The notes under the pieces are model-generated. The model saw only the letters and a list, made by a program, of their open reading frames with translations. It was not told the DNA's origin and did no database searches. Of a stretch of 64,000 nt of DNA, positions 32,808 through 61,183 are shown piece by piece (the first letter of the stretch is position 1; each line of letters opens with the position of its first letter). The translations under genes were made by a program, and so were the position numbers. The stretch covers positions 4,686,327 to 4,750,326 of the forward strand of contig NZ_JNIM01000001.1 in NCBI RefSeq assembly GCF_000702505.1, read 5' to 3'. This DNA comes from Thermogemmatispora carboxidivorans (GTDB taxonomy: Bacteria; Chloroflexota; Ktedonobacteria; Ktedonobacterales; Ktedonobacteraceae).

Positions 32808-33860
32808 TTAATCGGCCCGTTGCTGATTGCTAGTTATATTGCCGGCGCTGCAACCCGACCTGCAGCCGCCCTGGGAGCCGCAGCGCGGACAAGGGCCAGC
32901 GCCCGAGCTACCGCAACTACAACTGCCACTCGCGCTGGAAGTGGCAGGCTCCTCCTGGCGATGAGGATTCAGTCGGCAGGTCTGGCAACAACCGCCCCCC
33001 CCGGATGAGGCACGCCCTGAACCTGGGCCAGGGCCTTGCTCTTGTCGCTGGGGAGCAGGGATCTGGATGGTCGCCCCGCTCTCCAGCATGACCTCGACCG
33101 TTTCCTTGGGCACATTGATCGAAACCACCTTGCCAGGTCCACTCGGCGTCTCCAGGACCGTTCCGATCTGCGGCATACGCTTCTTGGCCTGAATATAGTT
33201 CTCATTCTCGTATGACAGGCAACAGAGCAAACGGCCACAGACTCCCGAAATCTTGGCAGGATTGAGGGGGAGTCCCTGCTCCTTAGCCATCTTGATTGAG
33301 ATGATGCCGAAATCACTGATCCAGGAGCTGCAGCAGAGCGTCTTGCCACAGGGACCAACACCGCCCTGAAGCTTGGCCTGATCGCGAGCCCCGATCTGAC
33401 GCAGCTCGATGCGCGTGCGAAAGGTCGCTGCCAGGTCGCGCACCAGGGCCCGAAAGTCGACGCGCTCATCCGAGGTGAAATAGAACGTCAAACGGCTCCC
33501 ATCAAAAGTATACTCCGCCTCCACCAATTTCATAGGAAGCTTGTGCTGAGCAATACGCTGCGCACAGCGGACCAGCGCCTCCTTCTCCTTACTTTTATAG
33601 GAGAGCATCATGCGCAGCTCTTCCTCGGTTGCCAGGCGGAGCACAGGTTTCAGGGGGTCACTCAGCTCGCTTTCTGCCACCTTTTTCGCGGGGATCACTA
33701 CGCGGCCCGCCTCCACCCCACGCACCGTCTCGACGATCACATACTGGCCTGTGCGATAGGTTTGTCCCTGGGGATCAAAATAATAAATGCGCCCGGCGGG
33801 ACGGAACCGGATACCGACAACCGTCACAACGTTCTCAGTAGCAGAAACTGTCGGCTGCAT
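32808..33860 (-). CDS. PSP1 C-terminal domain protein (RicT/YaaT-like) with Cys-rich C-terminal tail
   Basis: GPCGKTLCCSSWI...GVCGRLLCCLSYE is the PSP1/RicT core Cys motif. An additional GGGGCCQTCR...SCSCGSSGAGPCPRCGSQGGCRSGCS tail is present. Confidence 0.8.
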   Translation of the reverse strand: MQPTVSATENVVTVVGIRFRPAGRIYYFDPQGQTYRTGQYVIVETVRGVEAGRVVIPAKKVAESELSDPLKPVLRLATEEELRMMLSYKSKEKEALVRCAQRIAQHKLPMKLVEAEYTFDGSRLTFYFTSDERVDFRALVRDLAATFRTRIELRQIGARDQAKLQGGVGPCGKTLCCSSWISDFGIISIKMAKEQGLPLNPAKISGVCGRLLCCLSYENENYIQAKKRMPQIGTVLETPSGPGKVVSINVPKETVEVMLESGATIQIPAPQRQEQGPGPGSGRASSGGGGCCQTCRLNPHRQEEPATSSASGSCSCGSSGAGPCPRCGSQGGCRSGCSAGNITSNQQRAD

Positions 33861-34258: not shown

Positions 34259-34840
34259 CTACATCTCGTTGATCTCGTTCGTCAGCAGGATAGCCTCCGC
34301 CACCTCGCGCATCGACTTGCGATTGTTCATACTGGCCTTCTGGATCTTACGGAAAGCCTCCTGCTCACTCAGGCCATAGCGCTGCATCAGCAGCCCCTTT
34401 GCCCGCTCCACCACCTTGCGCGTCTCCAGCTGCTCGCTCAGCTCCTTTGCCTTCCCCTCCATCGCGCGGAACTCGTTGTAGCGGGCAAGTGCCACCTCGA
34501 TGGCCGGGGTCACCTCGCTCTCGCGCAGTGGCTTCACAATATAATTCACGACACCAGCCTGCTTCGCACGCTCGACCAGCGGTTGATCGCCAAAGGCGGT
34601 CAGCAGCAGCACCGGCGCGATGCGTTCCTGCGTCAGAATCTCGGCGGCAGCAATGCCGTCCATATCGGGCATGCGAATATCCATGATCACCAGGTCCGGG
34701 CGCAATTCGCGAGCCAGGTTCACAGCGCTCTGCCCGTCACCGGCCTCACCAATGACCAGGTAGCCCTGCTTGGTGAGGACATCCTTCAGGTCCATGCGTT
34801 GAATGGGTTCATCATCGGCAATGATCACACGTGTTGGCAT
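34259..34840 (-). CDS. ANTAR-domain response regulator (AmiR/NasT-type RNA-binding antiterminator)
   Basis: ATG at 34840 (MPTRVIIADDEPIQRMDLKDVL...). Receiver domain (DLVIMDIRMPDMDG) plus C-terminal ANTAR (...LETRKVVERAKGLLMQRYGLSEQEAFRKIQKASMNNRKSMREVAEAIL). Confidence 0.85.
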   Translation of the reverse strand: MPTRVIIADDEPIQRMDLKDVLTKQGYLVIGEAGDGQSAVNLARELRPDLVIMDIRMPDMDGIAAAEILTQERIAPVLLLTAFGDQPLVERAKQAGVVNYIVKPLRESEVTPAIEVALARYNEFRAMEGKAKELSEQLETRKVVERAKGLLMQRYGLSEQEAFRKIQKASMNNRKSMREVAEAILLTNEINEM

Positions 34841-35150
34841 GCTCGTATCCTGTCCGTATGACTTCAAACAAACCAGACTTGCAACTTCACAAACGACATA
34901 TTCGACCTGGCCGCTAGCACAGACACAAGACCGTCCCCCGGTCGTTGCTCTGTGCTCTCTGGCTTGTATCAAGAGTATACCACAGGTGTTTGATGAGAGT
35001 CGAGATAGAGTTTTCTGCCAGTTGTTTGCACTCACGGTCTTGCCGAGAGCCATTCCCACTCGCTCGCTCCTTCGCCCGAATCTCGCTCTTCCCCAGCATC
35101 TATCTGCCACCCGCCGCCCCTGTCAGCCCAGACACTGGCTCAGGCCCACC

Positions 35151-35284: not shown

Positions 35285-36358
35285 TCAGGCTACCTGTGAC
35301 AGTCTGTCGGCCTCCTGCATGATCTGGACCATCAGACGCGCCTCGTGGACGATGGTGCGCAGCTCAGCCGGCGTGATGGACTGGCGGCCATCGCAAAGGG
35401 CACTGTTCGGATCGGGATGGACCTCCAGAATCAGACCCTCGGCCCCAGCAGCGATGCCGGCACGGGCCATAGTGGGAACCAGTTCACGCCGTCCCGTGGC
35501 ATGACTGGGATCAACGATCACAGGCAGATGGGTCAGCTCATGCAGCAGTGGAACACAGGCCAGGTCGAGCAGGTTGCGGGTCTGCGGGTCAAAGCTACGC
35601 ACGCCGCGCTCGCAAAGGATGACGTTGGGGTTACCGGCGGCGACGATGTATTCGGCAGCAAGCAGCCACTCGTCAATGGTGGCGGAGAGACCTCGCTTGA
35701 GCATCACCGGTTTGCCCCGCCCTCGGCGGCCCACAGCCTGCAACAAGGGGAAGTTCTGCATGTTGCGCGCCCCGATTTGCAGGATGTCAGCATAGTCCGC
35801 TACGATCTCTACCATTTCCGGCTCCATGACCTCTGTAATCACGGGCAGACCTGTCTCTTGACGCGCCTCCGCCAGCAGACGCAGACCCTCGATGCCCAGT
35901 CCCTGGAACTGGTAAGGCGAGGTGCGCGGCTTGAAGGCCCCACCACGCAGGACCATCGCCCCTGCTTCCTTAACAGCCCGTGCAGTTTCTAGCAGCTGCT
36001 CGCGGCTCTCGATGGCACAGGGTCCGGCCATGATGACAGGCCTGACCTGCTCTCCACCGATGACGACGGGATCACAGTGACGGGCATCCCCTACAACGAT
36101 GCGGCTGGGACTGGTCTTGAAGTGACGGCTGACGAGCTGGTAGGGAGTGGTGGGGGTAAGGATCTGGGCGACAGCGGGCTGGCAACGGATGGTCTCCAAA
36201 GCCTGGGTATCGAGGACGGCGTGGTCGATGGCGATGACTTCGCTCTCCCCAATACAGGTGATGGCCAGAGGTCGCCGTTGACCGGCAACCTGCTCTACAA
36301 GCGACAACAAGGCAGCGCGTTCATCCTGGGTGGCCTGTGCTTCAATGACGATGATCAT
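35285..36358 (-). CDS. 3-deoxy-7-phosphoheptulonate (DAHP) synthase, type I-beta with N-terminal regulatory domain
   Basis: ATG at 36358 ([18 protein letters not shown]...). KDO8P/DAHP synthase core ...[14 protein letters not shown]...[19 protein letters not shown]...[12 protein letters not shown]... Confidence 0.85.
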
Positions 36359-36423
36359 ACGGCTGTCAGTTCCTTTCTCCTGAACTCCTGACTGCATGCT
36401 CCCAGACAGGGCAAGATTCCAGG

Positions 36424-36534
36424 GAAATAAAAAAGCAGAGGTTTTTCGCCTCTGCTTACTCCAGCATGCTGGGGATCTGCACGGATTAGGTGGTTCTGCT
36501 CAGCTCAACCTGAAGCGGCCCACCAGCATGCTGG
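36424..36534 (-). promoter_or_regulatory. DAHP synthase leader/promoter elements: terminator-like hairpin (AAGCAGAGG-7nt-CCTCTGCTT + T-run on minus strand, 36424-36457) and two identical 12-bp palindromes CCAGCATGCTGG (36461-36472, 36523-36534)
   Basis: All elements read directly. The hairpin sits ~66 nt upstream of the DAHP synthase start. The palindromes are 62 bp apart. Confidence 0.35.
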
Positions 36535-36914
36535 AGGGCTAAAGTAAAAGTAGTAATAAAAAGCGCAGGCAACCACCGCGCGCTGACTCTGCCAGAAACG
36601 CGCCTCTACTGGCTGCTGAAGTTGCAGTTGTGGTTGCCAGGGCTTGCTGAGCATCAGATCGTCTATCCTGCTTCCTGTTTGTCTCGGTGCCACGCTGCGC
36701 GCCTCTCGACGCGCCCACGTGCCGTGCAGAGCTGCTCTTAGTGGCGCACTCTCTCGCCACTTCCTGAGAATCAGGCTGAGGGCGGATTTCCGCCGCCACT
36801 CGCATAGTCTTCTGTAGGAGAAGTATAGGCCCAATTAGCCCGGCTGTCAAGGCCAGTGCCTAAAGGTCCGACCCGGCCAGCGCTCAATGGCCTCTCCCCA
36901 CAACGAGTCGAAGA

Positions 36915-37820
36915 CTAGCGCTTGCGCGCTCGTCGCCGCAGATAGCGCCGCAGATCACGGTAGTCCTCGTAGAGGTGATCGTGCTCGCCCTTGCTGGCCT
37001 CCTTCCTCCCCGCGCTGGCCTTGCTACGGCTGCTGCTCCCCTGGGACGCGCCCCTTCGACGCTCCTCCGCTGGCCGGCCAAAGGAGGGGAAGAGGTCGAA
37101 GCGGTTCAAAACAAGCAGCAGAGCAACGAGCAAGACCAGATAAATGACAAGTGCATGAGTGATGGTTACTGGGAAGTTGAAGATCGAAAACTGGATCAAT
37201 ACCTGGTTAAGATGCAAGATTGGTGAGAGATAAGCCAGCGGTATCTGCAGCAGAGTAGCAGCGAAGATGTAGATGAACAGGCCCACAAAGTGACGCGATT
37301 TCAGGAGGGGACGGCTTGCCTGATCAGTCGAGCTGCCTGCTGCCTGCCCGCTGCTTCTGGCCGCCGTCGAGGAAGCCTGTGTCTTTGTCATGTTCCGAAC
37401 GACCTTTTGCTGCTGCCCCTTGGTTGCTGCCTCGCTAATCTTCTTGTTGGCACGCTCTGCGCCGCCAGACTCGCCTTCGGGACTCGCCCCCCGGTACAGA
37501 CGCAAAGCCCGCCAGAGGCGCATTTTGCCCGCATCGGCTGGCGATCGCTGACGCTCCGTCTGCCCTTGCTCGGCAGCGGTTTGCGTGACCGAGGCGAAAA
37601 AGCCGGGCTGGCGGCGGGCGCTGGTCGCTTTAGCCGCGCTTGCTGCTTTGGCCGCGGCAGAAGAAGCCCGCTCCTCCGCCCGGGCCGAGGCCTGCTGTGT
37701 CCCTCCTTCGGCTCGTTGGTTAGATTGTTGCTCAGCGGCAGGACTGGAGCTACTGGAGATCACCAGTAGCGGACGCTGCCGCCGCGGATTAGCCGGGCGC
37801 TGGTCGGCATCACGGGTCAT
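36915..37820 (-). CDS. Hypothetical membrane protein with low-complexity (Ala/Ser/Gln/Lys-rich) N-terminal region
   Basis: 301-aa ORF with a low-complexity N-terminus and hydrophobic helices (FVGLFIYIFAATLLQIPLAYL, ALVIYLVLLVALLLVL). It overlaps the upstream GlcG-like gene by 4 nt. Confidence 0.5.
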   Translation of the reverse strand: MTRDADQRPANPRRQRPLLVISSSSSPAAEQQSNQRAEGGTQQASARAEERASSAAAKAASAAKATSARRQPGFFASVTQTAAEQGQTERQRSPADAGKMRLWRALRLYRGASPEGESGGAERANKKISEAATKGQQQKVVRNMTKTQASSTAARSSGQAAGSSTDQASRPLLKSRHFVGLFIYIFAATLLQIPLAYLSPILHLNQVLIQFSIFNFPVTITHALVIYLVLLVALLLVLNRFDLFPSFGRPAEERRRGASQGSSSRSKASAGRKEASKGEHDHLYEDYRDLRRYLRRRARKR

Positions 37821-61111: not shown

Positions 61112-61183
61112 TCCTCGATAGCTCAACGGTAGAGCAACCGGCTGTTAACCGGTGGGTTGCAGGTTCGAATCCTGCTCGAGGAG
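61112..61183 (+). tRNA. tRNA-Asn (anticodon GTT)
   Basis: Cloverleaf read manually: acceptor TCCTCGA/TCGAGGA, D-arm GCTC-AACGGTA-GAGC, anticodon arm ACCGG-CTGTTAA-CCGGT (GTT), T-arm GCAGG-TTCGAAT-CCTGC, discriminator G. No encoded CCA. Confidence 0.85.

Follow-up and report, generated by a model that had tools for sequence, protein, structure and literature searches.

Twin palindromes upstream of a Thermogemmatispora DAHP synthase gene as the strands of an RNA helix in a candidate leader-peptide attenuator

We analyzed the region upstream of a DAHP synthase gene in a 64,000-nucleotide stretch of the Thermogemmatispora carboxidivorans genome (contig NZ_JNIM01000001.1, positions 4,686,327 to 4,750,326), hereafter called the window, where a candidate RNA attenuator lies between promoter and coding region. 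The gene (35285..36358, minus strand) codes for a type I-beta enzyme of 357 amino acids (PF00793, E value 5e-81) that is 91% identical to the Thermogemmatispora argillosa enzyme, and a fragment of the T. aurantia enzyme shows 98% identity to it over 70% of its length. A first-pass annotation of the window had already assigned this gene and its start at 36358. It had also described two exact copies of the palindrome CCAGCATGCTGG, spaced 62 base pairs (bp) from centre to centre, and a terminator-like hairpin on the minus strand, all within a gap of ~556 bp. Each of these observations holds: the palindromes lie at 36461-36472 and 36523-36534, a terminator scan recovers the hairpin, which ends ~66 nucleotides before the ATG at 36358, and the upstream open reading frame (ORF) ends at 36915, giving a gap of ~557 bp. 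The palindromes had been taken for a repressor operator pair, an attenuation device, or both. The attenuation part of this proposal is supported by the evidence presented below and the operator part is not. What had been missed were a promoter, a leader ORF whose translation runs through the first palindrome, and the complementarity of the two palindromes to one another as RNA.

The only good promoter is of the sigma-70 type. Its TTGACA-N17-TATACT arrangement is common to two close relatives (loci L081 and L083), and TTGACA/TATAAT-like boxes are present in loci L001-L012. Transcription from this promoter would start near 36815 and produce a leader of ~455 nucleotides, which places the palindromes ~280 and ~345 nucleotides downstream of the presumed start. 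Within this leader is an ORF in which 12 of the 49 codons specify F, Y or W, including seven consecutive F/Y codons; four of the codons are for Trp. Homologous ORFs in Ktedonobacteria start with M-L-S and end with an F/Y/W run followed by S-P-P-A. In-frame leader ORFs are present in the relatives, with N-terminal parts and lengths that diverge, and inspection of the sequences reveals purine-rich Shine-Dalgarno-like stretches 8-16 nucleotides upstream of the leader ORF start. Thermogemmatispora-type leaders (the peptides of the window, L081 and L083) keep W6 as well as a Trp at codon 20 or 21. Runs such as FYYWF, FYF, FWY and WFY occur in at least ~95 members of the leader family, and the aromatic run has the same place relative to the first strand of the helix described next in at least ~95 members.

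Covariation indicates that the two palindromes pair with each other as RNA, in a helix of 14-17 bp formed between region 1 (which contains palindrome 1) and region 2 (which contains palindrome 2). The window segment folds as this helix plus the terminator with a z score of -3.3, and RNAalifold, with no structure imposed, arrives at the same helix and terminator. When 28 members were aligned with MAFFT, 83.5% of the cells in helix 1:2 were paired and 11 of 17 pairs had changed on both sides. None of 500 shuffles scored as high, and slid controls of the whole structure gave at most 57% paired. Compensatory changes are seen at 15 of 17 pairs in 98 distinct model-aligned sequences, an alignment that was fitted to the covariance model and leans towards the structure. 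At one helix pair, U·G is found in 52 and U-A in 36 of these 98 sequences. Such frequent U·G pairs would read as A·C mismatches in the opposite strand; they have no meaning for a DNA operator and fit only an RNA of the gene sense.

A covariance model called R1, built from the 28-member alignment, has one significant sense-strand match in the window; the other match (16.6 bits, E value 0.35) is to the reverse complement of the terminator hairpin. Across the window and the genome or assembly loci there are 31 strong sense-strand matches (at least 73 bits) and three weaker ones, in L046, L071 and L062. Each leader-bearing locus has one sense-strand match just upstream of the gene, with weak antisense matches at the same sites.

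The intrinsic terminator downstream of region 2 has a 9-bp G+C-rich stem, a 7-nucleotide loop and a U-rich tail, with a hairpin stability of ~-13 kcal/mol. It is conserved throughout the leader family, and 94 of 98 aligned members have exactly the stem GCAGAGG/CCUCUGC. No nucleotide belongs to both helix 1:2 and the terminator, which stand immediately next to each other, separated in the window by a single nucleotide, U36458. Among 99 aligned hits the spacer is 0 nucleotides in 34, 1 in 30, 2 in 8, 3 in 4, 4 in 10 and 5 in 11, such that it is 0-2 nucleotides in 72 of the 99 and at most 5 in all but two. When the terminator arms are blocked, the 100 nucleotides upstream fold with ~-38 kcal/mol in the window, versus ~-13 kcal/mol for the terminator hairpin. 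The leader therefore has a stable structure within 0-4 nucleotides upstream of a terminator with which it does not overlap, an architecture known as 'tug-of-war'.

The same architecture is found before DAHP synthase in at least ~95 Chloroflexota sequences. The survey comprised 80 genomic loci fetched with DAHP synthase as the probe, relatives at 83% and 80% DAHP synthase identity that were used for close comparison after exact-sequence queries with the window enzyme and the T. aurantia fragment gave no match, and a metagenome scan by terminator motif that gave at least 80 loci; among the matches listed, ~70 of 80 metagenome loci carry such leaders. Members come from Ktedonobacteria, Limnocylindria and other Chloroflexota, and they share the order of an F/Y/W-rich mini-ORF, region 1, an apical hairpin, region 2 and the terminator. 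The gene after the leader is DAHP synthase wherever the downstream sequence sufficed; L103, with 710 nucleotides only, gave no match. In Dictyobacter, Ktedonobacter racemifer and related genomes, a promoter and an ORF of the form M-L-S...(F)FYYWFSPPA-TGA precede the DAHP synthase gene, and the RNA after the ORF consists of CUCCAGCAUGAUGGUGG, a small hairpin, CCACCAGCAUGCUGGAG and then AAGCAGAGG-loop-CCUCUGCUUUUUUGUUU. Limnocylindria and other Chloroflexota have an 11-codon leader, M-x-x-x-F-Y-F-x-x-P-A-TGA, followed by the same terminator, and the pairing segments in Limnocylindria-type leaders have another sequence altogether (GCCCGGCAUGA with UCGUGCCGGGC). A divergent clade (L046, L062 and L071) has an 8-codon leader, M-T-F/Y-Q-W-F-Y-G-UAG, its own helix with a region 1 that begins at the stop codon, and a different terminator, ACGCAGGAAGC-GAAA-GCUCCUGCGU. 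In the three members of this clade, a segment of the helix loop (GCGCAGG or GCAGAGG) mimics the 5' arm of the terminator.

The terminator motif used for the metagenome scan, GCAGAGG-N4-9-CCTCTGCTTTTTTGTTT, has 24 specified bases. Among the matches listed, it also occurs without a leader in L131, L136, L093, L094, L117 and L084, and in four of these leaderless loci it lies just past the end of an unrelated gene in the fashion of an ordinary terminator.

No family in Rfam matches the leader. At gathering score, Rfam gave no leader, riboswitch or T-box match in the window, and at E values up to 10 the interval 36250-37000 gave only chance-level matches to eukaryotic families. The window leader contains no T-box sequence and has no Rfam match to one. 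Literature searches turned up no description of this Chloroflexota leader family. The coordinates of the leader features are collected in Table 1.

Table 1. Features of the DAHP synthase leader in the window, in order of transcription.
Feature	Position	Strand	Sequence or content	Basis
Sigma-70-type promoter	36822..36850	-	TTGACA-17 nt-TATACT	11/12 consensus positions
Leader ORF	36505..36654	-	49 codons, MLSKPWQ...AFYYYFYFSPPACWWAASG*, full MLSKPWQPQLQLQQPVEARFWQSQRAVVACAFYYYFYFSPPACWWAASG; ATG 36654, stop TGA 36507-36505	translation
Segment S	36646..36654	-	AUGCUCAGC (A-UGCUCAGC), leader start codon region; pairs with S' GCUGAGCA 36504-36497	
Upstream Trp/Phe codons	36592..36639	-	W6 36639-36637, F20 36597-36595, W21 36594-36592	
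Hairpin T1	36563..36581	-	GCGCGGUGGUUGCCUGCGC, inside leader ORF	terminator scan
F32 Y Y Y F Y F38 run	36541..36561	-	UUU UAU UAC UAC UUU UAC UUU; proposed regulatory ('hungry') codons	
Region 1, 5' strand of long helix	36523..36536	-	CUCCAGCAUGCUGG; contains palindrome 1 (36534-36523)	minimum-free-energy fold, RNAalifold, covariation
Apical part inside helix	36473..36522	-	ORF remainder and stop, small hairpin (the family's M hairpin), S' GCUGAGCA	
Region 2, 3' strand of long helix	36459..36472	-	CCAGCAUGCUGGAG; contains palindrome 2 (36472-36461)	fold, RNAalifold, covariation
Intrinsic terminator, by parts		-	AAGCAGAGG (36457-36449), CGAAAAA, CCTCTGCTT (36441-36433), then TTTTATTTCC (36432-36423)	terminator scan
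Intrinsic terminator, as one feature	36424..36457	-	AAGCAGAGG, CGAAAAA, CCUCUGCUU, then UUUUAUUUC	
Extent of covariance model match	36421..36571	-	87.2 bits, E 5e-22	model R1

Palindrome 1 forms codons P41-A42-C43-W44 of the leader ORF and palindrome 2 is its pairing partner in the RNA. Among relatives the two copies diverge yet stay complementary to each other. The close relative L081 has CCAGCATGATGG with CCAGCATGCTGG, the close relative L083 has CCAGCATGCTGG with CCGGCATGCTGG, which gives a G·U pair, and distant relatives have the Limnocylindria-type pair given above or CUCCGACA.. with ..UGUCGGAG. The first palindrome is CCAGCATGATGG in Dictyobacter, Ktedonobacter racemifer and related genomes because it carries the TGA stop codon of the leader, and for the same reason nearly all relatives have an imperfect copy 1. 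Both the window and L083 have TGC in place of this TGA, so that the palindrome becomes perfect and the peptide gains CWWAASG or CWWAFSG at its end; L081, the closer relative, retains the TGA. The twin appearance of the palindromes is owed to a chance self-complementarity of the paired sequence around GCAUGC. What the comparison indicates is that selection acts on the complementarity between the copies.

In most members the leader ORF stops within region 1 (P-A-UGA), 44-51 nucleotides before the terminator, and in the remaining members it continues past region 1 to a stop codon in the apical hairpin or immediately behind it. Because many clades read through region 1, the extended ORF of the window is a common variant and no accident. 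We considered whether the CWW extension compensates for an F/Y run that lacks Trp. This idea was rejected, as L081 has a Trp-less run, a normal stop and no extension. The conserved W6 and W20/21 are more likely to serve as Trp sensors than is the CWW extension.

These features are all but one of those that define a leader-peptide attenuator: a conserved short ORF strongly enriched in codons for the three end products, an intrinsic terminator, and a placement of codons and stop that could couple the two. The exception is an antiterminator overlapping the terminator, for which the searches described below gave no conserved and significant candidate. Upstream of DAHP synthase genes we observe the ORF, its codon bias, the covarying helix, the terminator, the abutment of one against the other, and the conservation of all of these across the family. 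We conclude that the DAHP synthase gene is probably under a ribosome-mediated transcription attenuator, whose 3' half would be the region holding the palindromes and the terminator and whose helix would suppress termination by abutting the terminator. Judged from sequence analysis, we give this reading a probability of about 0.68. The positions of ribosomes, the direction of regulation and the action of abutment are what we infer from the arrangement.

A model for this attenuator can be drawn as follows. The 49-codon leader would be translated while RNA polymerase moves on. If charged tRNA-Phe, tRNA-Tyr or tRNA-Trp were scarce, a ribosome would stall at W6, at F20/W21 or early in the F-Y-Y-Y-F-Y-F run. 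Since these sites are upstream of region 1, a stall there would leave region 1 to pair with region 2 once region 2 has been transcribed. The resulting long helix would abut the terminator stem, termination would be suppressed, and DAHP synthase would be transcribed. If the aromatic tRNAs were charged, the ribosome would pass region 1 to reach the stop codon, which lies inside the loop of the would-be helix. The long helix would then be blocked, the terminator would form and transcription would stop. In this 'off' state region 2, which is able to self-fold weakly (CCAG-CAUG-CUGG), would form its own hairpin and leave a longer and more flexible spacer. Because the helix and the terminator share no nucleotides, suppression is proposed to occur via abutment, in which the two structures would compete sterically or mechanically at the RNA exit channel; an extended helix that pairs weakly with the terminator 5' arm may contribute in some members. 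The computed geometry, for which the ribosome footprint was assumed to cover ~12 nucleotides upstream and ~14 nucleotides downstream of the P site, is consistent with this scheme, as stalls on the aromatic codons leave region 1 free and a terminating ribosome covers region 1 or sits in the helix loop.

Several observations weigh against this model. With a ribosome footprint imposed at every codon in turn, the terminator still forms with a probability of ~1. Pairing between the aromatic codons and the terminator 5' arm is no better than that of shuffled upstream sequence (z ~0). The model leaves the invariance of the terminator stem across classes unexplained. Owing to the extended ORF of the window, a ribosome at its stop codon no longer covers the 12-nucleotide palindrome and is located only inside the loop, and under Trp starvation the two Trp codons of the extension would place the ribosome on region 1, although it would come to W6 and W21 earlier. 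In addition, a study of non-overlapping structures found strong terminators to be little affected by a simple upstream hairpin, with pseudoknots and ligand-bound aptamers performing better (bioRxiv 10.64898/2026.06.17.733018). The barriers computed from the alternative fold to the terminator fold are ~3-12 kcal/mol and provide no strong kinetic argument.

The most serious rival is a classical attenuator whose overlapping antiterminator we have not pinned down, a possibility we consider unlikely but worth detailed attention. Duplex searches, folds with blocked terminator arms, ribosome-constrained folds and a shuffle test found no antiterminator that shares nucleotides with the terminator and no competitor that is both conserved and significant. 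Three candidates for overlap can be named. The last Phe/Ser codons (C UUU A GC, 36544-36538) could pair with the terminator 5' arm (GC AGAG) and so extend the helix outward; GCCUGCGCUU (codons A-C-A-F, the 3' arm of hairpin T1) could pair with AAGCAGAGGC; and GAGCAGA just past the leader stop could pair with the terminator 3' arm, with UCUGCUU as its partner at -8.4 kcal/mol in the window. Once the 3' arm is blocked, alternative partners for the 5' arm are worth -4.4 kcal/mol (window), -8.3 kcal/mol (L081) and -4 to -10 kcal/mol (most Limnocylindria). Minimum-free-energy folding of L015 yields the extended helix, and the F-Y-F codons of Limnocylindria, CUUCUACUU, match AAGCAGAGG at 8 of 9 positions. 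However, these pairings do not exceed those of shuffled upstream sequence, Ktedonobacteraceae have them only in weak form (-0.5 to -2.8 kcal/mol), the L046-type clade lacks them, and in the 11-codon ORFs of Limnocylindria a ribosome stalled on F-Y-F would cover the partner. The F-Y-F codons were accordingly rejected as an antiterminator strand, given that they failed the shuffle test and would be covered by the stalled ribosome. Because the terminator persists in all constrained folds, a classical, mutually exclusive antiterminator cannot explain the regulation as these folds portray it.

The other alternatives invoke a protein or the nascent peptide. That the palindromes are DNA operators for a dimeric TyrR/TrpR-like repressor, bound cooperatively six helical turns apart or acting as a roadblock, has in its favour the two perfect 12-bp palindromes 62 bp apart before an aromatic pathway gene, and their recurrence is far beyond chance: exact matches to the palindrome averaged 0.03 in 100 dinucleotide-preserving shuffles and never numbered two. 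Yet the sites lie far downstream of the promoter and well within the transcript, copy 1 is coding and is imperfect in almost all relatives, and the copies differ between clades while remaining complementary, including through strand-specific G·U pairs. The sites are neither promoter-adjacent nor kept as a protein-recognition sequence, there is no third copy anywhere in the 64-kb window, and by eye the sequence is unlike the TyrR box, whose consensus is TGTAAA-N6-TTTACA. We therefore regard operators as extremely improbable. Binding of both palindromes, as hairpins in the nascent RNA, by the ANTAR response regulator encoded downstream, with the terminator thereby prevented from forming, is also very improbable. 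The adjacency of that gene, the conserved order of DAHP synthase, ANTAR and PSP1 genes in Ktedonobacteria, and the presence of two hairpin-capable elements, the second beside the terminator, speak for it. ANTAR targets as reportedly described by Ramesh and colleagues in 2012 are adjacent stem-loops with hexaloops carrying A1 and G4, the second of which overlaps a terminator. Here the loops would be CAUG (4 nucleotides) or GCAUGC, which lack the A1/G4 hexaloop signature, the hairpins are 50 nucleotides apart, and the terminator is overlapped by neither of them. This leader RNA and its terminator are also present in Limnocylindria and other clades where the fetched loci have no ANTAR match, so that the neighbouring ANTAR gene is not required for the leader, and covariation favours pairing between the two elements over two independent hairpins. 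There is an outside chance, finally, of an arrest peptide similar to TnaC, where a free aromatic amino acid would slow release at Pro-Ala-UGA, the ribosome would stay on region 1 and the terminator would form. The spacing [aromatic x3]-x-x-P-A-stop is constant, the stop is nearly always UGA in short-ORF members, and the attenuator model itself needs a terminating ribosome to dwell on region 1. However, CCG GCA UGA is also fixed by its pairing with region 2, such that selection on the peptide is unneeded, many clades including the window read on and stop 8-10 codons later at UAA, UAG or UGA, and the residues between the aromatic run and P-A vary (RC, PS, RR, RH, SP). An arrest peptide is possible for short-ORF members and cannot apply to the window, whose ORF reads on.

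Two further structures accompany the proposed attenuator. In Ktedonobacteria, segment S at the leader start codon pairs with S', which is located just after the apical hairpin. Compensatory variants of this pairing are present in L008 (UGCACAGC/GCUGUGCA) and L127 (UGUUCAGC/GCUGAACA), and in L160, L011 and L012 the sequences at the S and S' positions are unrelated but complementary. Because S:S' crosses helix 1:2, the combined topology is that of a pseudoknot. The role of the pairing may be either to prevent renewed initiation on the leader or to lock the structure upstream. The second structure, the strong hairpin T1, falls within the leader ORF, where the first codons of the Phe/Tyr run make up its 'U tail'. 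T1 is partly conserved in L081 and L083, with a broken U tract in L083. In appearance it is a terminator or pause site, which would be melted by a ribosome translating the leader, and a role as a pause or coupling hairpin is possible. Its 3' arm, GCCUGCGCUU, resembles the 3' arm of the real terminator.

The centre of the paired region also contains AUG triplets that open short frames. In the window, a second mini-ORF begins at the AUG in the palindrome centre (MLVGRFRLS*, 36529-36500); the position of its stop in Ktedonobacteria is explained by the conserved S'. In nine Limnocylindria loci (L013, L015, L019, L022, L023, L025, L026, L027 and L074), the AUG in GCAUGA opens an out-of-frame ORF of 6-7 codons, and these embedded ORFs end at UGA or UAG in or just before the apical loop despite differing loop sequences. 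They could be due to chance or could be a landing site for frameshifted or re-initiating ribosomes.

The 5' untranslated region between the presumed transcription start and the leader ORF is ~160 nucleotides in the window (36655-36815, minus strand) and ~85-100 nucleotides in L081 and L083. In the window it holds several G+C-rich hairpins, for example GGCGGAAAUCCGCC and GUGGCGAGAGAGUGCGCCAC. Downstream of the DAHP synthase gene, the presence of an ANTAR regulator gene noted by the first-pass annotation is borne out by receiver and ANTAR domains (PF00072 and PF03861). This gene and one for a PSP1-domain protein lie at 34259-35110 and 32808-33860 on the minus strand, and the order DAHP synthase, ANTAR regulator, PSP1 is kept in Ktedonobacteria (L003-L010 and L081-L083). 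Across these loci the two neighbours show 78-91% and 81-92% amino acid identity, versus 65-83% for DAHP synthase. This DAHP synthase leader does not seem to be the RNA that the ANTAR protein targets. The sole Rfam match at gathering score in the window is a tRNA gene at 61112-61183 on the plus strand (72.9 bits).

Carbon destined for any of the three aromatic amino acids is committed at the DAHP synthase step, and in E. coli the DAHP synthase genes are under the control of the repressors TyrR and TrpR. In the Chloroflexota leaders, by comparison, a single Phe/Tyr/Trp leader peptide appears to read all three pools of charged tRNA. The family is large (at least ~95 sequences), has strong covariation and matches no Rfam family. 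It is also a candidate for a natural, ribosome-gated test case for antitermination without overlap, and programs for finding attenuators that require an overlapping antiterminator will miss leaders of this kind.

The kind of regulation we propose is already known. It is ribosome-mediated attenuation, for which an aroF leader provides a precedent, and what varies is the architecture, in which the helix abuts the terminator and does not overlap it. The leader resembles trpL, pheL and hisL (Rfam families Trp_leader, Phe_leader and His_leader) in its codons for the end products, its intrinsic terminator and a stop placement that would expose different RNA. In trpL the ribosome binding site is sequestered, and the S:S' pairing at the start region recalls this feature. 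Unlike the enterobacterial attenuators, the window leader has no Rfam match (E values up to 10) and no 2:3 antiterminator with nucleotides in common with the terminator, and one peptide would sense three amino acids. Its ribosome-free transcript is predicted to read through, the opposite of the strong termination ('superattenuation') in E. coli trp.

A closer functional parallel is found in Corynebacterium glutamicum, where two reports (PMC4046766; PMC11802643, citing Neshat et al. 2014) describe an aroF leader peptide with Phe-Tyr-Phe and, in the case of aroR/aroF, transcription that rises when ribosomes stall at the Phe-Tyr-Phe codons (PMC11802643). As there, a small F-Y-F leader ORF precedes DAHP synthase, and the 11-codon Limnocylindria members share the F-Y-F. 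The likeness lies in the leader ORF and its codons, and the present leaders differ in phylum, in serving a type I-beta enzyme, and in a stalled-state helix that has no overlap with the terminator.

The architecture itself is best matched by riboswitches. Bushhouse, Fu and Lucks (bioRxiv 10.64898/2026.06.17.733018) describe 'tug-of-war' regulation by structures located 0-4 nucleotides upstream of an intrinsic terminator with which they share no sequence; a longer spacer restores termination, and ~10% of natural ZTP riboswitches are of this type. The Chloroflexota leaders similarly place a stable, non-overlapping structure next to the terminator, mostly at 0-2 nucleotides. The riboswitch structures are stabilized by a ligand, whereas here the position of the ribosome on the leader ORF would gate the helix. 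We suggest, tentatively and with the odds somewhat against it, that the leader is a ribosome-gated 'tug-of-war' attenuator without overlap, perhaps locked as a pseudoknot by S:S', that is present in at least two Chloroflexota classes and is the first natural leader-peptide attenuator of this sort.

Our survey also encountered other RNA leaders before the same enzyme. Loci from Acidobacteriota (Bryobacteraceae and relatives; L042, L064, L039, L050, L016, L057, L059, L038 and L035) have a different DAHP synthase attenuator. Like the Chloroflexota leaders, these encode peptides rich in F, W and Y (...SFRFWYWFSA*, ...YSFRFWRFTPSG*) followed by a terminator and the same type of DAHP synthase. Unlike them, the acidobacterial RNA has a classical antiterminator, GAGUGG, that competes with CCCACUC-loop-GAGUGGG and its U tail, and as far as checked it matches neither R1 nor any named family. 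In Bacillota (L049, L075 and L052), the T-box sequence GGGUGGUACCGCG followed by a terminator precedes this enzyme; the 'GFYQFGWYRV peptides' that a screen for aromatic ORFs picked up in Bacillota loci were rejected because they are translated T-box sequence. The leader-peptide solution thus recurs with different RNAs in Chloroflexota, Acidobacteriota and Corynebacterium, and type I-beta DAHP synthase appears to be served across phyla by three RNA solutions, namely the T-box, the classical attenuator and the candidate abutting-helix attenuator described here.

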